From: Armatimonadota bacterium
GTDB taxonomy: Bacteria; Armatimonadota; SYMT01
Direction: 5' to 3'
Length of the DNA: 64,000 nt
Assembly (NCBI GenBank): GCA_046292385.1
Contig: JBKBRF010000007.1
Span: 123,247-187,246 of the forward strand
Below are positions 37,668 to 47,604 of this stretch, in pieces. Within the stretch, counting starts at the first letter, position 1; each line of letters starts with the position of its first letter. Position numbers and translations under genes: made by a program. The notes under the pieces were generated by a model. It did not search any database. It was not told the origin of the DNA and saw nothing but the letters and a program-made list of their open reading frames with translations.

Positions 37668-37985
37668 ATGGTCGCAGCTCCCCGACCGGAACAGGACTGT
37701 GCCCAGAAGCTGAAGGTACTGGCGGACCCGACCCGTCTCTCCGTGCTGGAGATCCTGGGTGAGGGGCCGATGCACGTCGGCGAGATGAACCAGGTGCTCC
37801 ACCTGGAGCAGAGCCTGCTCTCCCACCACCTGAAGGTGCTCCGGGAGGCGGGGCTGGTGGAGGCGGTGCGCGACGGCAAGGCGGTGCTCTACCGCCGTAC
37901 CGACGCGGAAGAGGCGGGCGCCGGGGCGATCGATCTCGGGTGTTGCCGGCTGGAGTTCCCCGGCCGGGACCCCTCCGATGCGTAG
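37668..37985 (+). CDS. ArsR/SmtB family transcriptional regulator
   Basis: LKVLADPTRLSVL, QSLLSHHLKVLREAGLV; N-terminal Cys and C-terminal CC. Confidence 0.92.
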   Translation: MVAAPRPEQDCAQKLKVLADPTRLSVLEILGEGPMHVGEMNQVLHLEQSLLSHHLKVLREAGLVEAVRDGKAVLYRRTDAEEAGAGAIDLGCCRLEFPGRDPSDA

Positions 37986-38820
37986 CCGCCTCTTGACCCT
38001 GCTCCTGGCGCCGCTCGCCCTGGCGGCGCTCTCCGGCTGCGGCGGCGCCGCCCGGGGGAGCACCGGCGATCGACTGGTCCTGACCGGCTCCAGCACCATC
38101 GCGCCGCTGGCGGCGGAGATCGCGAAGCGGTTCGAGGAGCGGAACCCGGGGGTGCGAGTCGACGTGCAGACCGGCGGCTCCTCCCGCGGGATCAGCGACG
38201 CCCGGCAGGGCCTCGCGGACATCGGCATGGTCTCCCGCGCGCTCAAGCCGGAGGAGCGCGACCTCCAGGCGTTCCCGATCGCCCGCGACGGGATCTGCCT
38301 GATCGTCCACCGCGACAACCCGGTCCGCAGCCTGACCGACGAGCAGGTCCGCGCCCTCTTTACCGGAAAGGTCGACCGCTGGAGCGCGGTGGGCGGGGCG
38401 GAGGCTCCGGTCACCGTCGTCCACAAGGCGGAGGGGCGCTCGACCCTGGAGCTGTTCCTGGCCCACTACCGGCTGGAGAACCGGGAGATCGACGCGGACG
38501 TGGTGATCGGCGACAACGAGCAGGGGATCAAGACGGTCGCCGGCAACCCGCACGCCGTCGGCTACGTCTCGATCGGCGCCGCGGAGCACCACGTGCGGCA
38601 GGGCACCCCGCTCAAGCTGCTGGCGGTCGGCGGGGTAGAGCCAAGCTCCGAAAACGTTCGCCGCGGCGACTATCCGCTCTGCCGCCCCCTCCACCTGGTA
38701 ACGCGGAGCGCGCCCGCGGGCACCGCGAAGGCGTTCCTCGACTTCGCGCGGTCGCCGGAGGTGCGAGACCTGGTGGAGCAGCAGTCGTTCGTGCCGCTGC
38801 CGGACGGGGATGCAGAGTAG
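37978..38820 (+). CDS. pstS: Phosphate ABC transporter substrate-binding lipoprotein
   Basis: LSGC lipobox, TGSSTIAPL, GGSSRG, DIGMVSR. Confidence 0.88.
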   Translation: MRSRLLTLLLAPLALAALSGCGGAARGSTGDRLVLTGSSTIAPLAAEIAKRFEERNPGVRVDVQTGGSSRGISDARQGLADIGMVSRALKPEERDLQAFPIARDGICLIVHRDNPVRSLTDEQVRALFTGKVDRWSAVGGAEAPVTVVHKAEGRSTLELFLAHYRLENREIDADVVIGDNEQGIKTVAGNPHAVGYVSIGAAEHHVRQGTPLKLLAVGGVEPSSENVRRGDYPLCRPLHLVTRSAPAGTAKAFLDFARSPEVRDLVEQQSFVPLPDGDAE

Positions 38821-39673
38821 CGTGCCGCGGCGGGCCGACCGGCTGCTCGTCCTCACGGCACGCGCCGCCGCGCTGATCTCCGCGGCGGTGCTGCTCTTCA
38901 TGCTGCTCTTTCTCGCCCGGGAGGCGCTGCCGGCGCTGCGCTCTCCCGGGGTAGGGGCGTTCCTGACCGATCGCGCCTGGCATCCGACGGAGGGCGAGTA
39001 CGGCATGCTGCCGATGGCGGCGGGGACGCTGCTCGCGATGGCGGGCGCGCTGCTGCTGGCAATTCCGCTCGGCGTGCTCTCGGCTCTCTTCTGCTGCTTC
39101 TACGCCCCGGCGCCGCTGGCGGGAATCTACCGCAGCCTGCTGGGGCTGCTCGCGGGGATCCCGTCGGTCGTCTTCGGCTTCTGGGGGCTCGTCACGCTGG
39201 TGCCGCTGCTCAACCAGGTGCAGCCTCCCGGCGCGAGCCTGCTGGCCGCCGCCCTGATCCTGGCGCTGATGGTGCTGCCGACCCTCGCCCTCACGGCGGA
39301 GGCGGGGCTCCGCGCCGTGCCGCGGGAGTACCTCGCCGCGGCGGCCGCGCTGGGGCTCTCCCGCCCGACCACGATCTACCGGGTGGCGCTGCCCGCCGCC
39401 CGCTCCAGCCTGGCAACCGCGGTGGTGCTCGCCGCCGGGCGCGCGCTCGGGGAGACGATGGCGGTGCTGATGGTCGCCGGAAACGTGGTCCAGGTGCCGC
39501 GGAGTCTCTTCGACCCGGTCCGCACCCTCACCGCCAACATCGCGCTGGAGATGGCGTACGCGACGAGCGCGCACCGCTCCGCGCTCTTCGTGAGCGGCCT
39601 GGCGTTGGCGCTGCTGGTGGGCGCGCTGGTGCTCGCCGCGGAGACGCTCTCCCGGAGGCCCGCCCGTGGTTAA
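38810..39673 (+). CDS. pstC: Phosphate ABC transporter permease
   Basis: AGIPSVVFGFWG, GRALGETMAVLMVAGN. Confidence 0.92.
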   Translation: MQSSVPRRADRLLVLTARAAALISAAVLLFMLLFLAREALPALRSPGVGAFLTDRAWHPTEGEYGMLPMAAGTLLAMAGALLLAIPLGVLSALFCCFYAPAPLAGIYRSLLGLLAGIPSVVFGFWGLVTLVPLLNQVQPPGASLLAAALILALMVLPTLALTAEAGLRAVPREYLAAAAALGLSRPTTIYRVALPAARSSLATAVVLAAGRALGETMAVLMVAGNVVQVPRSLFDPVRTLTANIALEMAYATSAHRSALFVSGLALALLVGALVLAAETLSRRPARG

Positions 39674-40517
39674 GCCGCGCCGTGCGCTCGCGGAGCCACT
39701 GACGGCGCTCGCCGCCTGGGGCGCGGCGGCGGTGGTCTGCCTCGTCTTCCTCTGGCTGGCGGCGGAGGTCGCCCGCGCCGGGGTGGGGCGCCTCTCGCTC
39801 CCGTTCCTCATCGCGCCCGAGGAAGACGCAGGCCGCAGCGGGGGCATCGGCCCGATCCTCGTCTCCACCGGGCTGATCCTGGCGGTGAGCATGGGGGCTT
39901 CAGTCGTGATTGGTCTGCCCGCTGCCGTGCTGCTGGCGGAGCTCTCCGGTGCGGGGCGCTTCGGGGCGGCGGTGCGGCGGAGCCTCGACCTCCTCGCGGG
40001 GATGCCCTCCATCGTCTTCGGGCTCTTCGGCAACGCCTTCTTCTGCGGCGCGCTCGGGCTGCGGTTCTCCATCCTCTCCGGCGGGCTCACCCTCGCCTGC
40101 ATGGTGCTGCCGCTGCTGATCCGCACCTCGGAGGAGGCGCTCCGCGGCGTCCCCGCCGCCTACCGGGAGGCCGCCGCGGCGCTGGCGCTCTCCCGGACCA
40201 CCCTGCTCTTCCGGGTGCTGCTGCCGGCCGCGCTGCCGGGGCTGCTGGTCGGTCTGGTGCTCGGCACCGGCCGCGCGCTGGCGGAGACCGCCGCCCTCGT
40301 CTTCACCAGCGGCTACGTCACGCGGATGCCGGGGTCGCTCCTCGATTCCGGCCGGGCGCTCTCCGTGCACATCTACGACCTCTCCATGAACGTCGCGGGC
40401 GGCGACGCGAGCGCCGGCGCCTCCGCGCTGGTGCTGATGGTCCTGATCCTGGCGCTGAACGGCGCGACCGAGTGGCTCGCCGGCCGCTGGCGGCGGTCCG
40501 GAGAGGCGCGGCCGTGA
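39666..40517 (+). CDS. pstA: Phosphate ABC transporter permease
   Basis: GGIGPIL, GMPSIVFGLFG, GRALAETAAL. Confidence 0.92.
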   Translation: MVKPRRALAEPLTALAAWGAAAVVCLVFLWLAAEVARAGVGRLSLPFLIAPEEDAGRSGGIGPILVSTGLILAVSMGASVVIGLPAAVLLAELSGAGRFGAAVRRSLDLLAGMPSIVFGLFGNAFFCGALGLRFSILSGGLTLACMVLPLLIRTSEEALRGVPAAYREAAAALALSRTTLLFRVLLPAALPGLLVGLVLGTGRALAETAALVFTSGYVTRMPGSLLDSGRALSVHIYDLSMNVAGGDASAGASALVLMVLILALNGATEWLAGRWRRSGEARP

Positions 40518-41290
40518 GCGAGCCGCGCGTGCTGCTGCAGGCGACCGACCTGGCGGTCGCGTACGGAAAACGGACCGCCCTGCGCGGCGTGACGCTGCCG
40601 GTCCGGGAAGGGGTGGTTACCGCCCTGATCGGCCCTTCCGGCTGCGGGAAGACCAGCTTCCTGAGCTGCGTCAACCGGCTCACCGACCTGGTCCCCGGCT
40701 GCCGGGTCTCCGGTAGCTTGCGGCTCGCGGGGGTAGAGCTGCTCGACCCCGGCCTCGACCTCCCCTCGCTGCGGCGGCGAGTCGGGATGATCTTCCAGCG
40801 CCCGAACCCGTTCCCGCTCTCGATCCGCCAGAACCTGCTGCTCCCGCTGCGGGAGCACCGCCTCGGCACGCCGGCGGAGTGCGAGGCGCTGGCGGAGCGG
40901 GCGCTGCGGGACGTCGGCCTCTGGGAGGAGGTGAAGGACCGCCTCGACGCCCCCGCCCTTTCCCTCTCCGGCGGGCAGCAGCAGCGCCTCTGCTTCGCTC
41001 GCGCGCTCACCCTGCGGCCGGAGGTACTGCTCCTGGACGAGCCGTGCAGCGCCCTTGATCCGCTGGCGACCGGCGTGGTGGAGGAGCTGATCCTGCGGCT
41101 CCGCGGCGAGTACACGGTGGTGATCGTTACCCACAACCTGGCGCAGGCCCGCCGCCTGGCGGATGACGCGGCGCTCTTCTGGCTCCGGGACGGCGCCGGC
41201 TGCCTGGTGGAGCACGGCCCCGCCGCCCAGCTCTTCGAAGCGCCGCGCCAGCCGGAGACGGCGGACTACGTCCGGGGAGTGCGAGGGTAG
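40514..41290 (+). CDS. pstB: Phosphate ABC transporter ATP-binding protein
   Basis: GPSGCGKT, FQRPNPFP, LSGGQQQRLC, LLDEPCSALDP. Confidence 0.93.
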   Translation: MSEPRVLLQATDLAVAYGKRTALRGVTLPVREGVVTALIGPSGCGKTSFLSCVNRLTDLVPGCRVSGSLRLAGVELLDPGLDLPSLRRRVGMIFQRPNPFPLSIRQNLLLPLREHRLGTPAECEALAERALRDVGLWEEVKDRLDAPALSLSGGQQQRLCFARALTLRPEVLLLDEPCSALDPLATGVVEELILRLRGEYTVVIVTHNLAQARRLADDAALFWLRDGAGCLVEHGPAAQLFEAPRQPETADYVRGVRG

Positions 41291-42359: not shown

Positions 42360-43664
42360 TCACATGAAGTTCGGCGTGTGCATCTCGCTCATCTTGCGGG
42401 CGAGATCGACCGGAACCCCGGCCTGCGTGAGGCGCTGCACGCGGTTGTCGGCCATGCGCTGGTAGAGGGCGCGGACTTTCTCCACGCCGGCCGACATCTG
42501 CGCCGGGCTGGCGCCGCCGCCGCCGAGCACGGCGAGCGCCTCCATCACGAACGGGGTCGCTCCGGTGGTGGCGGAGATGGCGTCCGCCCGGGCCTCCACC
42601 GCCTCCATCAGGCGGCCGAGGTAGTCCGGGTGCCGCTCCAGCTGGTACTTCAGGTGCGCCACGCCGTAGGCGACGTGCCGCGCCTCGTCCTGCCGCGCGC
42701 GCTGAACCACGTCCCGCGTTACCGGATCCGGGGCGTGCTGCTCGCAGTAGCGGAGCAGGTCGAGGAAGGTGCCTTCGCCGAGGACGTGCAGCAGGAAGCT
42801 GGAGTTGAAGTAGTCTTCCTGGATCAGCAGGCTGAAGAGCGACCACTCCGTGGCGGCCGACGCGTACTGCAGACCGCCGCCGTTGGCGAGGGCGCGCTTG
42901 GTGAACGCCTCGATGTGGCGGGCCTCGTCGTTCACGACGGTGGCGAGGAAGAGCACCACCTCCGTGAACTGCGGGTTGATCTGCGGCATGAACTTGCTGG
43001 GGATGTAGAGGGCGGAGTACTCGTTCTCCGCCAGGAACGTCATGATCTGGCAGACCGCCCTCTCCACGTCCTCATCCAGCTTCGGCAGCTCCCCCCACGC
43101 GATCGAGGTGGAGGCGTCCCACTGCGCCGCCTTCGCCTGCTCGTAGAGATCGGCGATGTTGTCCGCCCAGACGTCGTCCTTGCGGTTGAGGGCGAAGCCG
43201 TAGTCCGGCATTCCCGGCTCCGCCACCGCCCCGCGCGGGACGAAGCCGAAGTAGGTGGGCGCCTCCTCCGGCACCTCGCCGACCCGCCCGACGAACCAGT
43301 CGCGGATATCGACGCGCCGTCCGTCGCGCCTCGGCAGCTCCACACCCCAGTCCGGCTCGCCCCAGGCGCTGGTACCGGGACCTTTGCGGACGAGGTACTT
43401 GATCCGGTCGCCGCCGTCCAGCGCCGTCAGGAACTGGTTCTTCGTCATGCGGCACCAGGCGGGGAGGTCCTGGCGCACGCTGATCTCCGTGCTGTCGACC
43501 TCCAGCACCTGCCCCTGTTCGAGCTGGTTCATCGCCCGGCGGATGACGAGCAGCAGGCCGGTGCCGCAGTCGAGGTCGCCGCCGTCGACCACCAGGTTGG
43601 GAGTCACCCCGATCACGGAGAACTCGTCGGCCGGTAGGGAGTTAGGGTCTTCGCGTGGGGACAT
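42360..43664 (-). CDS. TusA-like domain fused to ferritin-like diiron domain
   Basis: DGGDLDCGTG...DLPAWCR N-terminus; ENE, DEARH, EG, DEARH carboxylate-diiron pattern. Confidence 0.85.
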   Translation of the reverse strand: MSPREDPNSLPADEFSVIGVTPNLVVDGGDLDCGTGLLLVIRRAMNQLEQGQVLEVDSTEISVRQDLPAWCRMTKNQFLTALDGGDRIKYLVRKGPGTSAWGEPDWGVELPRRDGRRVDIRDWFVGRVGEVPEEAPTYFGFVPRGAVAEPGMPDYGFALNRKDDVWADNIADLYEQAKAAQWDASTSIAWGELPKLDEDVERAVCQIMTFLAENEYSALYIPSKFMPQINPQFTEVVLFLATVVNDEARHIEAFTKRALANGGGLQYASAATEWSLFSLLIQEDYFNSSFLLHVLGEGTFLDLLRYCEQHAPDPVTRDVVQRARQDEARHVAYGVAHLKYQLERHPDYLGRLMEAVEARADAISATTGATPFVMEALAVLGGGGASPAQMSAGVEKVRALYQRMADNRVQRLTQAGVPVDLARKMSEMHTPNFM

Positions 43665-43724: not shown

Positions 43725-43879
43725 GCGTATTGCGTATCGAGTATTGCGTAGCGGAGCGCTGGTCCCGCTTTACCTGACGTCGTGCCGCGCGAAGAGCTCC
43801 AATTCACGCTTCGCCCGGCACGACGTAGCGGTCGAGCGGTAGAGGCATCTCGCTACGCAATACTCGATACGGAATACGC
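43725..43879. mobile_element. MITE-like hairpin element (gene-less copy of the 17673 family)
   Basis: 29-bp inverted repeat with 1 mismatch plus inner ACGTCGTGCCG/CGGCACGACGT stem. Confidence 0.78.
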
Positions 43880-43880
43880 G

Positions 43881-44243
43881 CTAGTAACTCAGGCTCGCCG
43901 CTCCCGAAGTCAGGAACTCCACCGCTTTCGCGCCGCCGACGATCACCGCGCCGTCGACGAGCTTCTCTTCGTCCAGGCCGCGCTTCTTGAAGCAGGGGGA
44001 GCAGACGTAGATCGTGCCGCCGAACTCGGCGAAGTCGGCCATCAGCTCCTTCAGCGGCTTGAAGCCCTCCTCGTGGACGTCGTCCGCGTAGCCCTGCTCG
44101 GAGAGACGCACACCCTCCGTGCTGAGGAAGACGACCGTCTCGACATCCGAGGCGACGGCGGCGTTGGCGACCACGAAGGCGACGGTCGCCTTGTCGGTGT
44201 TGTCTTTCGCGTAAGAGAGGGAGATCAGCAGCTTTCCGGCCAT
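43881..44243 (-). CDS. DsrE family protein
   Basis: VFLSTEGVRL, IYVCSPCFKKRG. Confidence 0.88.
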   Translation of the reverse strand: MAGKLLISLSYAKDNTDKATVAFVVANAAVASDVETVVFLSTEGVRLSEQGYADDVHEEGFKPLKELMADFAEFGGTIYVCSPCFKKRGLDEEKLVDGAVIVGGAKAVEFLTSGAASLSY

Positions 44244-44264
44244 GAGGGTCCTTTCTTCCGTAAC

Positions 44265-44810
44265 TCAATCCTGCTTGCGGCGAATGAAGTAGCTCTCGTC
44301 CTCGGTGGGGCCGGCCAGGAGCGTGTGGCCGGTAAGCCGGCACCAGCTCGGGATGTCGGCCTCCGCGCCGGCGTCCCGGGCGACCAGCTCCAGCACCTCG
44401 CCGGGATCGAGCTTCCGGATCGAGCGCATCAGGAGCACCATCAGGTCGCCGCAGCCCGCCTCTTCCGCGTCGACGCGGAGCGCCGGGGTGGGAAGCTCTT
44501 CCGCCGGGGAGAACAGCTCCGGCCGGAGCCACTCCGGCGGGCTATTCGAGTGCTCCAGGCGGCTGGGGCAGCAGGGAGACTGGCCGTCCCGGTCGCAGAT
44601 CTTCGCCTTCCGCCAGTCCCGGCGGTAGCAGTCCCGGCGGATCAGGTAGTTGCCGACCAGCTCGCACAACTGCTCCGGGGTGGAGCCCAGGCCCTCCCCG
44701 AGGCACCGGAGGCAGCGGCAGGCCCCCTTGCCGGCGAGCACCCGGCTGATGACCTCCTGACGCCCGCAGATCGGCTCAGCACACCGGTCACAACGCCGTT
44801 CCTCTGCCAC
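44265..44810 (-). CDS. Cys-rich N-terminal domain plus TusA-like domain
   Basis: CxxC...C...CxCxxC...C...C...C...CC then VDAEEAGCGDL...DIPSWCRLTGH. Confidence 0.8.
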   Translation of the reverse strand: MAEERRCDRCAEPICGRQEVISRVLAGKGACRCLRCLGEGLGSTPEQLCELVGNYLIRRDCYRRDWRKAKICDRDGQSPCCPSRLEHSNSPPEWLRPELFSPAEELPTPALRVDAEEAGCGDLMVLLMRSIRKLDPGEVLELVARDAGAEADIPSWCRLTGHTLLAGPTEDESYFIRRKQD

Positions 44811-45144
44811 TGCTACCGCCCACCCATCCGGCCGTTCGCTTTCATCCTATCCTTCGTTCCCGAGAACGGTAGCACTGCTCCTTCACTGCGGCGCATCGAA
44901 AGTTCCTATGGAGCGGCCGGCTGCCATTGAAACACCTTCTGGTGCAACTCCCTAAATCGAAAACACCCCCGTGCTCCGCCCGCAGGCATCAGAAAACGCG
45001 ATGCGCCATATCGAGGACTCTGCGGTCGCTGAGTCCAACCAGCACCGGAGGGCTGCCCTGGCCGCCTGTCAACCTGGCGCTGCCCGGTGCGGCGCTCCAG
45101 TCATCATCAGTGAGCCGTCTTCCGTTGGGACGCGGCGGGAGTGT

Positions 45145-46266
45145 ATGGAATTGAGAAACGGATTGTCGATCGGGCGGGTCGTCACCGCCTCACTGGCCGT
45201 GGCGGCGCTCTGCGGGCCGGCGCGGCACGCGCACGCCCAGGGGTGAGTGGTCAATCGCCAAACCGCGCCCGTGCTTGGCGCGGCTGACCTGGGACCGTAT
45301 CTTGAAAAGGGAGAGTGGCAGCTCGGTGCCACTTACCGCACCTTCCGCGCGGACAAGCAGTACACCGGGACGCGCCTCAACCCGCTGGTGACGGCACTCA
45401 AGACCAACGTCATCAGCGAGCTCGACATGCTCGACCTGGGGGTGACCCACGCCTTCAGCCGGCAGTTGAACGTCACCCTGGGCATTCCGATCGTCCTCTA
45501 CGCCAGCTCCTCCCGGGGGCTGCCGTCTACGGTCGCCGGCAGTCCGCGCTTCGTTCACAGCGCGGAGGGGCTCGGCGACATGACGCTGGTCGGGCGCTAC
45601 TGGCTGCTCGACTGCGACAAGCACCAGCACGGCAACGTCTCGCTCGGGTTGGGCGTGAAGTTCCCGACCGGCAACTCGAACGTGCGCGACCGGTTCCCGG
45701 ATGCCACGGGCGCCAACGAGCGGCTGCGGCCGGTCGACCAGTCGATCCAGCTCGGCGACGGCGGCTGGGGGGTCATCTTCGACCTCCAGGCGTTCAAGCA
45801 GGTGGGGAGCGCCACCGTGTTCCTCCAGGGCACGTACCTGGCGAACCCCCGGGGCGAGAACGACACGCTTTCCCCGCCGGCGTTCCTGAGTCCGGCAGGC
45901 CGGAAGGCCGTGCCGCGCTCGCTGCGGTTCAACACGGTGCCGGACCAGTACCTCGGACGCGTGGGCATCACTCACCCGGTGCCGGGCGTGCGGGGACTCA
46001 ACGCGCTGATCGCCGGGCGCATCGAAGGCTCGCCGCGGAACGACCTCTTCGGCGACACCGTCGGCTTCCGCCGGCCGGGCTACGGCATCGCCATCGAGCC
46101 GGGCCTGATCTACACCCTGCCGAACAACCAGACCACGCTCTCTCTGAGCGTGCCGGTGACGCTGCAGGTGAACCGGCAGGCGGTAGCCGGCGTGCCGGGC
46201 GACGCCACCTTCGCGGACTATTCCATCTTCGCGTCGGTGACGCACCGCTTCGGCGGCAAGAAGTAG
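45145..46266 (+). CDS. Putative selenoprotein: outer-membrane beta-barrel (SphA/phenol-MetA transporter-like), 373 aa with UGA at codon 34
   Basis: GGGAG RBS, signal peptide ending AHA, then QG-TGA-VVNRQ in frame with a 339-codon barrel ORF (GLGDMTL, GLGVKFPTG, QLGDGGWG); hairpin just downstream of the TGA. Confidence 0.8.
45249..45289 (+). promoter_or_regulatory. Bacterial SECIS-like hairpin
   Basis: GGTCA/TGACC lower stem; CCGCGCC-CGTGCTT-GGCGCGG upper stem; loop starts 23 nt after the UGA with G at loop position 2. Confidence 0.7.
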
Positions 46267-46292
46267 GGCCAGGTGGCGGACCGGGCTCTACG

Positions 46293-46327
46293 ACGGCCTC
46301 TCCCAAAACTGGGAGAGGCCGTGTTTT
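46293..46327 (+). terminator. Rho-independent terminator
   Basis: ACGGCCTCTCCCA-AAAC-TGGGAGAGGCCGT then GTTTT. Confidence 0.8.
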
Positions 46328-46421
46328 CTAAGGAGGTCCCCCGGCGCGGGTCCGGAATGGTAAAGTGTGAGGTTTCAGAGCTGCGGCCGGATCAACCCGG
46401 CGAGAGGCTGGAGCGCGAACG

Positions 46422-46742
46422 ATGCTGCGAGCACTCCTCATGCTCCCCAACTGGGCGGCCCGGCCGGTGACAGCGCTCTCCGTGCTCGCCAGCGCCGGCA
46501 CCGTCTACTGGTGCTCGATCCTGGCGACCGACTACGCGCGGGAGCTTCACCCGTGGTGCGGTACGGGCGCGGACCGGATCGCCGGTCTGCTCGGCGGGGT
46601 GGTGCCGGCGAGCTTCCTGGTGCCGGCGGTCGGCTGGCTGCTCTGCCGGGGCAACCCGCGGCTCCGCCGGATAGCCCGCTGCGCCACACTCGCGTCGATC
46701 GCGGCGTGGGCGACGGTGCTCACGTGCATCCGCTGGGCCTGA
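46422..46742 (+). CDS. Small membrane protein
   Basis: Three hydrophobic segments. Confidence 0.5.
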   Translation: MLRALLMLPNWAARPVTALSVLASAGTVYWCSILATDYARELHPWCGTGADRIAGLLGGVVPASFLVPAVGWLLCRGNPRLRRIARCATLASIAAWATVLTCIRWA

Positions 46743-46755
46743 CGGCCGGGGCGGG

Positions 46756-47604
46756 TTACTTGCGCCCGCGATTGCCGGAGCGCTGGGCCGGCTTGTCGAA
46801 GAGCAGCACGTACTCGTGCTTGAAGATGTAGAAGCCGCCGCGGAGGGCGCGGTACCGCCAGAGGTTGCCGGTGCGGCCCTTGCCCACCTCGTTGCCCTCG
46901 ATGTTCTTCACCACGATGGAGCGGGTGCGGAATCCGGCCTCGTTCATCACTCGCATGCACTCGAAGCCGAGCGGGATCAGCTCGCCCGCGGAGTACTTGT
47001 CCCCGATCACCACCACCGCGAAGCGGCCGGGGCGGAGCAGGTTGTAGGCGCGGTCCGCCACCCGGCGGAAGCCGTCCAGGAACCCCTCGGTGCCGTCCGC
47101 GTTGGAGAGGTCCTCTTCGCGGTCGCTGAAGCGGATGATGTCGTGGTACGGCGGGTGGAGCACCGCGAGATCGACGTGCTCCCGCTCCCAGCCGTGCAGC
47201 ACTTCCCGGACCCGCACCTCCGTCTCCGGGCTGCCGCTGTCGCCGCAGAGCACGGCGGCGCGGCTGCCGTCGTCGCCCAGCTTCGCGCGGACGTGCTCCG
47301 CCAGCTCCGGCTTCAGCTCCACCCCGATGCAGCGCCGCCCCAGACGGAGCGCCTCCACCGCGCTGGTGCCGGAGCCGAGGAAGAGATCGAGCACCACGTC
47401 GTCCTCCCGCGTGAAGCGGGTGAACGCCTGGGTGGCGATCTGCGGCACGAAGTTGCCGTGGTACTCCAGCGCGTGCCCGTTCCCACGCGCGCGGGAAGGG
47501 ATGAGCCAGAGCGAGTCGGTCCAGACGTCGTCCAGCTCCTTCCAGCGGGTGAGGTCGAGGTCGTTGTAGGGAACGGTGGGGGCGAGCGGCTTACGGGGTT
47601 TCAC
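46756..47604 (-). CDS. DNA methyltransferase (N4/N6 type), orphan
   Basis: YHGNFVPQI, VLDLFLGSGT (motif I), HPPY (motif IV), HEYVLLF. Confidence 0.85.
   Translation of the reverse strand: MKPRKPLAPTVPYNDLDLTRWKELDDVWTDSLWLIPSRARGNGHALEYHGNFVPQIATQAFTRFTREDDVVLDLFLGSGTSAVEALRLGRRCIGVELKPELAEHVRAKLGDDGSRAAVLCGDSGSPETEVRVREVLHGWEREHVDLAVLHPPYHDIIRFSDREEDLSNADGTEGFLDGFRRVADRAYNLLRPGRFAVVVIGDKYSAGELIPLGFECMRVMNEAGFRTRSIVVKNIEGNEVGKGRTGNLWRYRALRGGFYIFKHEYVLLFDKPAQRSGNRGRK

Follow-up and report, generated by a model that had tools for sequence, protein, structure and literature searches.

Is the in-frame TGA at positions 45244-45246 of this DNA, which stands between a signal peptide and an outer-membrane beta-barrel, a stop codon, or is it read as selenocysteine (Sec)? 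The window, by which we mean the whole stretch of 64,000 nucleotides (nt) analysed here, comes from an Armatimonadota bacterium (assembly GCA_046292385.1, contig JBKBRF010000007.1), and coordinates are positions within it. Its list of open reading frames (ORFs) has the barrel as an entry at 45247-46266 with a GTG start and 339 amino acids (aa), and entry P0001 of the protein collection, from the same contig, is the 339-aa product at 100% identity. The initial annotation of the locus had proposed an unrecognised selenoprotein gene that reads through the TGA. We consider it highly probable that the UGA is indeed decoded as Sec and that the gene encodes a genuine selenoprotein: the decoding machinery is present, the column holds only TGA or Cys codons in homologues, the downstream hairpin covaries, and the TGA recurs in independent contigs. 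The full reading, of one exported gene for a FapF/COG4313-like selenoprotein barrel with a UGA directed by a selenocysteine insertion sequence (SECIS), a predicted Sec-tipped N-terminus and servicing by thiol or metal partners, receives a probability of roughly 0.88.

The read-through frame runs from ATG 45145 to TAG 46264-46266 and comprises 373 codons, 339 of them past the TGA. The gene and its flanking elements all lie on the (+) strand:

45137-45141, +: Shine-Dalgarno-like GGGAG, read from the sequence, with a short spacer of only 3 nt to the ATG
45145-45237, +: start codon and signal peptide M1-A31 (ending PARHAHA), 31 codons, MELRNGLSIGRVVTASLAVAALCGPARHAHA; predicted signal-peptidase-I cut after A31
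45238-45243, +: CAG GGG, encoding Gln32-Gly33, the first two residues of the predicted mature chain; near-invariant in homologues
45244-45246, +: in-frame TGA, putative Sec34, residue 3 of the predicted mature protein (Sec/Cys column, machinery, independent contigs)
45247-45312, +: segment before the first strand, VVNRQTAPVLGAADLGPYLEKG, a candidate lumen-occluding segment; R38 and P42 are invariant in alignment A1
45263-45283, +: SECIS-like hairpin, also encoding (T)APVLGA (fold, covariation, codon usage, fit to the bacterial SECIS model)
45313-46254, +: beta-barrel domain, residues 57-370 (structure prediction, Foldseek, profile search)
45613-45615, +: Cys157 (LLDCD), in the turn between strands 146-153 and 163-173 (translation, structure prediction)
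46264-46266, +: TAG stop codon (sequence)
46293-46322, +: intrinsic-terminator-like hairpin of 13 pairs, 9 of them G-C, then GTTTTCT

The ATG, the signal peptide, the CAG GGG TGA and the in-frame 339-codon ORF of the initial annotation are all found, as are its terminator after the TAG and, though closely spaced, its ribosome-binding site. The Gln-Gly pair is invariant in alignments A1 and A4. TGA serves as the ordinary stop of three other window genes (a permease, a TusA-domain protein and argininosuccinate synthase), so a reassigned genetic code is not the explanation.

A column of cysteine or TGA in homologues

We compared the codon at this position across 170 loci (164 distinct sequences) drawn from related genomes, a scan of one genome per species and metagenome contigs. 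It is TGA at 89 loci and a Cys codon (TGC or TGT) at 81, with no other residue at any locus; orthologues thus align either TGA or Cys at codon 34, accompanied by a conserved, covarying downstream hairpin. Twelve matches came from the 41 related genomes (nine with one TGA, two with TGC and one fragment), each TGA standing at ...AQG* right after the signal peptide and the Cys forms reading AQGC in the same column. The one-genome-per-species scan contributed 80 loci (21 TGA, 31 TGT, 28 TGC) and the metagenome contigs 79 (59 TGA, 17 TGC, 3 TGT). The 21 TGA loci of the species scan all come from metagenome-assembled genomes; its Cys forms include isolates such as Spirosoma and Algoriphagus strains. 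The flanks are kept, with QG before the column and xxxR after it, and all Cys forms read QGC[VIL][VILA]xR, close to the motif QGCVAxR from which the initial annotation had anticipated Cys at this position.

Among the 119 nearest protein clusters, 40 are full length, all of them with Cys at the column. The remaining 79 start downstream of the column, 35 of them on the very next codon and 37 on a conserved Val nine codons further along. These late starts are the footprint of gene callers that stop at the TGA, the truncation that had been foreseen. On a FastTree phylogeny of 161 distinct mature sequences, built with the Sec/Cys codon left out, Sec and Cys interchange at least 13 times, compared with 52-62 switches in label shuffles (first 5 of 200).

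A sequencing error at the TGA can be set aside, for the codon reads the same in contigs of two independent soil studies that run across it. X2 record 1 spans 45100-45853 and X3 record 8 spans 45150-45648, neither with a difference at 45244-45246; the X6 contig ends at 45239, short of the TGA. The bacterium's own genome also contains a second full-length copy (L028, G000:C54:1581-2651) with 50% identity, TGA in the same column and the same hairpin, and a shorter match (L031, G000:C2:15639-16178; residues 137-320, 46% identity, with stops upstream) that is probably a decayed copy.

The 7.04-Mb genome encodes the full set of Sec genes, selA, selB, selC (the Sec tRNA) and selD. The matches to selB (367 bits), selA (578 bits) and selD (362 bits) all exceed the curated cut-offs; selD itself has one in-frame TGA within its CGGU motif, followed by its own hairpin; and the tRNA-Sec scores 66.6 bits and is called tRNA-SeC(tca) by ARAGORN. 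The genes selA, selD and tRNA-SeC are clustered at G000:C11:87438-90122 (L009, L010, L012) with a tRNA-Ala adjoining, and selB lies on C16. All ten TGA-bearing genomes tested have selA or selB above the curated cut-off (G000, G002, G003, G005, G016, G041, G042, G044 and G045, and G043 with selB only). Cys forms were found in selA-bearing genomes and in three Bacteroidota with no selA match over the cut-off. Among close relatives selA was discarded as a discriminator, being present in 32 of 41 genomes and hence carrying little information.

Around the column, residues were counted in 160 distinct loci. The residue right before Cys/Sec is Gly in 160/160, the one two before is Gln in 158/160 and the one three before is Ala, Gly or Ser in 158/160; the fourth is often aromatic and the fifth small or aliphatic. 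The signal peptide therefore ends small-x-small and is followed by QG[U/C], that is, AxA then QG[U/C]. Since these residues follow the -3/-1 rule of signal peptidase I, the mature protein should start Gln-Gly-Sec, with Sec as the predicted third residue. The signal peptides of Sec forms are much more uniform than those of Cys forms and tend to R/P-H-A-W-A-Q-G-U (of 83, 49 have W at -4, 28 have H at -6 and 33 have R at -7); common ancestry could explain this, as could a constraint on the sequence immediately 5' of the UGA.

The hairpin downstream of the TGA

The initial annotation had described a two-part hairpin after the TGA, of which the inner helix is conserved and the outer one is not. In the window, CCGCGCC (45263-45269) pairs with GGCGCGG (45277-45283) around the loop CGTGCTT (45270-45276). 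The resulting 7-bp stem carries a 7-nt loop, CGUGCUU, that begins 23 nt after the UGA and has G at loop position 2, and on its own it folds at -13.0 kcal/mol; this geometry fits the bacterial SECIS model, as had been stated.

We examined 86 distinct Sec forms in a gapless alignment, in which the helix is formed by nt 19-25 with nt 33-39 after the U of UGA. The 7-nt loop has the consensus CGUGNUN. Pairing occurs in 91.1% of cells, compared with 81.6% in column shuffles (0 of 500 reach 91.1%) and 23-48% in slid-partner controls. Both sides of a pair have changed in 49 cells where 12.6 are expected, and the covariation score of 0.259, against 0.114 in shuffles, lies above all 500 shuffles and all slid controls. 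Coupled changes that preserve pairs include (i) Thr7 (ACG) with Val12 (GUG) in 3 of 3 cases and (ii) Gly7 (GGG, 11 loci) with Ser12 (UCG, 12 loci), and one locus shows a synonymous GCA/GGU double change. The outer helix GGTCA/TGACC pairs in 41.8% of cells, inside the range of the slid controls, and was rejected as a part of the SECIS.

Codon usage was compared in those forms that share Pro8 and Gly11 (81 Sec, 17 Cys). The Pro codon is CCC in 81/81 Sec forms and in 4/17 Cys forms (13 have CCG), the Gly codon is GGC in 78/81 and 9/17, and the Val codon is GTG in 77/77 and 6/8; at least six of the seven pairs form in 76/81 Sec forms and 2/17 Cys forms. The synonymous sites are frozen in Sec forms only. 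The published constraints for bacterial SECIS elements, taken from PMC13188914 Fig. 2, agree with 77 of 86 Sec forms, the window copy included, versus 7 of 78 Cys forms.

In one genome, three tandem TGA paralogues (L026, L029, L030; G002:C287) have an N-terminal peptide that reads QGU and then xxPK/VR...GGA. Their hairpin is a different, GC-rich one, GGCGGCGCCGCC, and may be a second SECIS solution within the barrel family.

Barrel, candidate mechanism and rival explanations

AlphaFold2 predicts a confident barrel for residues 57-370 in two models, one with the signal peptide and one of the mature chain with an N-terminally complete alignment; mean confidence (pLDDT, the predicted local distance difference test) is 89.0 and 93.2, and exceeds 90 throughout the barrel. 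The best Foldseek match is FapF (5o67; E 3e-14, template-modelling (TM) score 0.73, 13-14% identity), and the COG4313 channel Pput2725 (4rl8) is matched at E 2.6e-9 with a TM score of 0.76 on the target. In a search of the family profile against the PDB, FapF was the sole sequence found (E 4e-10). The window protein matches 0 Pfam families at E <= 1 and no NCBIfam model (release 20) at E <= 1, while 72 of 120 close homologues reach PF13557 at E <= 0.01 (best 4.9e-8); it is thus a distant branch of the FapF/COG4313 superfamily and not a scoring PF13557 member.

We propose that 45145-46266 is one gene whose UGA at codon 34 would be decoded by SelA/SelB/SelC/SelD, directed by the SECIS 23 nt downstream, a 7-bp stem with a 7-nt loop inside the APV(L/I/F)G(A/V) coding sequence. 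Signal peptidase I would cut after AHA, and the mature chain is predicted to start Gln-Gly-Sec. The approximately 23 residues before strand 1 may fold back into or under the barrel, by analogy with FapF and with Pput2725, a 12-stranded barrel in which the 14 residues before strand 1 fold into the lumen and occlude it (PMC4493636). The selenol would then sit at the periplasmic mouth or in the lumen, where it could act as nucleophile or ligand for thiophilic cargo, either a soft metal such as Cu(I) or sulfur/selenium species. Periplasmic thiols would service it; in relatives the candidates are a Cys or a CxxC in the C-terminal tail, a TlpA-like redoxin either fused or encoded next door, and fused HMA domains. 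The window copy has no such partners nearby apart from Cys157, so that a trans-acting partner would be needed.

The proposed partners are seen in the relatives. The C-terminal tail contains a Cys in 33 of 84 distinct Sec forms, typically where a Pro/Ala-rich linker ends, and in only one of 77 Cys forms; the C-terminus of the closest relatives reads RCxKCGxLH, and 11 of the 84 Sec forms have a Cys in the barrel body. Five Sec loci (L149, L152, L155, L158, L159) have a fused TlpA/redoxin domain (FYPTCPFC), three (L037, L166, L129) have one or two fused C-terminal HMA domains (MxCxxC), and at 12 of 89 Sec loci the next gene downstream encodes a separate TlpA-like protein; one Cys form, P0054, ends in a thioredoxin domain. 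In a barrel whose two ends lie on one side, these C-terminal thiol and metal modules would share that side with the N-terminus. This points to a reactive selenol or thiol in exchange with thiol or metal-binding partners of the periplasm.

That Sec is a redox- or ligand-active site working with such partners is possible, at odds somewhat short of even, and any one particular cargo is at best unlikely. The initial annotation had guessed at a role with a soft metal, thiol or Se compound, which we likewise infer from circumstantial links to HMA, TlpA-like and TusA-like proteins. A bolder version, in which the N-terminus is inserted in the lumen and its QGU tip does the work of a selenol-dependent outer-membrane transporter, capturing thiophilic cargo and handing it to periplasmic acceptors, we regard as unlikely. 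In such a transporter the cargo (Cu(I), another soft metal, or a sulfur or selenium species such as polysulfide or selenide) would be held as an Se-ligand or as an Se-S or Se-Se adduct. The tip would swing it to an acceptor (the tail Cys, CxxC, HMA or a TlpA-like protein), from which TusA-like carriers might in turn be fed.

Several results weigh against the selenoprotein reading or against a function for it. Over a 61-nt region of the window the fold energy is -22.5 versus -23.1 on average in shuffles (z 0.23), 117 of 200 of which are at least as stable, and the percentile of the 45-nt minimum free energy within the gene has medians of 0.179 in 30 Sec loci and 0.165 in 61 Cys loci (Mann-Whitney p 0.64); because energy is at chance level in this GC-rich DNA, it was replaced by the position-specific pairing and codon tests. 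No Rfam family matched 45100-45400 at E <= 10. The stem overlaps the peptide motif APV(L/I/F)G(A/V), which is also conserved in some Cys forms, so that the protein sequence accounts for some of the conservation. The Cys controls are mostly from low-GC Bacteroidota with a different peptide, and only 17 share Pro8/Gly11. This hairpin is missing from five divergent Sec loci (L024, L026, L029, L030, L049), where other stems occur. The loci are related and some are near-duplicates, so their counts overstate independence. From the sole RNA run (X20) came only a divergent 208-nt contig (14 differences) and two ~20-nt fragments, which speak neither for nor against expression. With regard to function, the first ~20 mature residues have a pLDDT below 60 in both models and are not placed, and a lumen position of Sec is therefore only inferred; the window copy lacks a tail and a CxxC, and neither TlpA nor HMA is encoded beside it; and neighbourhoods are heterogeneous across loci.

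The explanation that competes best with a reactive Sec is a structural one, in which Sec is real but serves as a fixed selenylsulfide or disulfide staple: it would tie the N-terminal segment to the barrel or the tail and take no part in catalysis or cargo handling. Against this, redox chemistry and ligand binding are what most selenoproteins use Sec for (PMC13188914), and a reactive site accords better with the cost of Sec, the 13 or more Sec/Cys switches and the TlpA-like/HMA linkage. In favour of a staple, the mature chain has at least one further Cys in 57 of the 84 Sec forms and in 47 of the 77 Cys forms; the remaining 27 Sec forms have none. In the window copy Cys157 is the only other Cys of the mature protein, and its pairing with Sec34 is speculation. 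We rate the staple as quite unlikely.

Less probable still is a lipid-anchored barrel in which the column is the +1 position of a lipoprotein signal (AQG then C) and Sec stands in place of the acylated Cys. A Cys straight after a signal peptide and preceded by Gly does resemble a lipobox, whose consensus is L-[AS]-[GA]-C. The 160 distinct loci depart from this consensus, with Gln two residues before the column and Ala, Gly or Ser rather than Leu, Val or Ile three before it (each 158/160). Residues 3 and 5 before obey the small-x-small rule of signal peptidase I with an aromatic between them, and the invariance of Gln and Gly exceeds what a lipobox needs.

Least probable of all is a true stop at the TGA, leaving a 33-codon leader ORF and a barrel from GTG 45247 or a pseudogene: this is exactly what gene callers report (P0001 and 79/119 clusters), TGA is an ordinary stop elsewhere in the window and a GTG follows directly, but a barrel from GTG 45247 has no signal peptide and could not reach the outer membrane, an in-frame upstream signal peptide ending in AxA before QG is kept in 89/89 TGA loci of several phyla, the same column is Cys in 81 loci, the hairpin covaries, the supposed start of 37 clusters is the GTG of the conserved Val nine codons on, and a pseudogene would not persist at 89 loci through 13 or more changes between Sec and Cys.

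Several other genes recur beside Sec-form barrels: 12 loci have LuxR-type response regulators, 7 the end of a large outer-membrane barrel, 6 a multihaem MtrC-like cytochrome and 5 BNR/sortilin-like proteins. The window copy adjoins none of them. In L075, L078, L135, L150, L188 and L190 a multihaem cytochrome of ~700 aa (Cytochrome_C554, MtrC/MtrF-like) starts ~40 nt past the barrel stop on the same strand. Upstream of the window barrel, on the opposite strand, lie two TusA-domain genes at 44265-44810 (-) and 42360-43664 (-), one product with a Cys-rich N-terminus and a TusA-like domain, the other with a TusA-like N-terminus and an R2-like/DUF455 di-iron-like domain (weak matches). Both share DxGxxxCG and WCR motifs. 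The TusA-like pair recurs beside the barrel in L021, L032/L033 and L116/L118 (6 of 170 loci), and in the recurrences the C-terminal domain of the second protein is swapped for MetE-like or OsmC-like domains.

Some Cys forms have a conserved same-strand cluster of their own: L038, L060, L099 and ~20 further loci of Bacteroidota and Verrucomicrobiota have the N-terminus QGCVAVRHMSC, a ~198-aa protein upstream (25 loci), a ~342-aa protein downstream (18 loci) and then a ~700-aa DUF6851/vanadium-chloroperoxidase-like/PAP2 protein (23 loci). These three proteins occur in no Sec locus. Elsewhere in the window, 37978-41290 (+) encodes a phosphate-type ATP-binding cassette (ABC) transporter (a PstS-family substrate-binding protein below the curated cut-off, two permeases and an ATPase), and 46756-47604 (-) encodes an N6/N4 DNA methylase domain protein just past the barrel terminator on the opposite strand. 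The PstS-like ABC transporter, the DNA methylase and the arginine genes were dropped as functional clues, there being no recurrent link to the barrel, and the ORFs 43782-44930 (+) and 46367-46831 (+) were dismissed as genes since their translations look non-coding.

Standing among known barrels and selenoproteins

The initial annotation had placed the protein outside the classical selenoprotein families, and our survey agrees. Table 1 of a 2026 review (PMC13188914) lists 119 prokaryotic selenoprotein families or subfamilies, among them no PF13557, COG4313 or FapF-like barrel; outer-membrane proteins are represented there by just two entries, the GSU2204/MtrB-PioB family and a TonB-dependent receptor of the FCYXU type. 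The barrel is not among the nine new families in the available part of the deep-Sep paper (PMC12013277), and the main text of the BSepDB paper contains none of the words 'outer membrane', 'barrel' or 'transporter'. No literature that we found joins selenocysteine with COG4313, FapF or Phenol_MetA_deg, although supplements could still list the barrel as a candidate, and the PF13557 literature found, as far as its available text goes, does not treat selenium. Judged from its sequence, the barrel would form a new selenoprotein family, unusual for its outer-membrane location and for Sec at the mature N-terminus. The decoding mechanism would be the ordinary bacterial one, so the novelty lies in the family.

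If this is true, a large outer-membrane protein family of soil and freshwater bacteria (including Acidobacteriota, Armatimonadota, Planctomycetota, Verrucomicrobiota and Gammaproteobacteria) is systematically mis-annotated, its entries ('hypothetical protein' or 'transporter') being cut short at the N-terminus and missing both the signal peptide and the single reactive residue. The bacterial selenoproteome would gain an outer-membrane family without a thioredoxin fold, one whose Sec form outnumbers the Cys form in soil metagenome contigs (59/79). Through the links to HMA, TlpA-like and TusA-like proteins, selenol chemistry at the cell surface would become open to experiment. Prokaryotes have no known selenium transport system that is both specific and of high affinity (PMC13188914), and the barrel family is a candidate for selenium transport or soft-metal uptake. 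Were the doubtful transporter version to hold, it would be the first covalent or ligand-relay passage across the outer membrane, and possibly a dedicated selenium uptake route.

Structurally, the window barrel is best matched by FapF (PDB 5O65/5O67), the secretion channel of Pseudomonas functional amyloid. FapF reportedly has a plug helix and a coiled coil; it contains no Sec, and fap-type amyloid genes were not seen among the examined neighbours of barrel loci. The COG4313/PF13557 Phenol_MetA_deg channels, such as Pput2725 (PDB 4RL8), are alike in barrel size and in having a segment before strand 1, which is ~23 residues long in the window protein versus 14 in Pput2725. The N-terminus of Pput2725 has conserved Glu2 and Gly6, the word 'cysteine' is absent from the main text of the paper, and COG4313 channels are tied there to the uptake of hydrophobic molecules and not, in the part available, to thiol or metal partners (PMC4493636). 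The GSU2204/MtrB-PioB family (NF041027) and the FCYXU-motif TonB-dependent receptor (NF049945) are also outer-membrane barrels with Sec predicted from Sec/Cys pairs; they are different barrels that the window protein does not match at E <= 1, and their Sec is not at the mature N-terminus. The TlpA-, DsbG- and DsbA-like exported selenoproteins (UxxC/CxxU) likewise combine an extracytoplasmic Sec with Cys homologues (PMC13188914 Table 1), and TlpA-like domains are fused or adjacent to this barrel in some relatives. The predicted Sec of the window barrel lies outside a thioredoxin fold and outside a UxxC motif, in QGU followed by hydrophobic residues and Arg.

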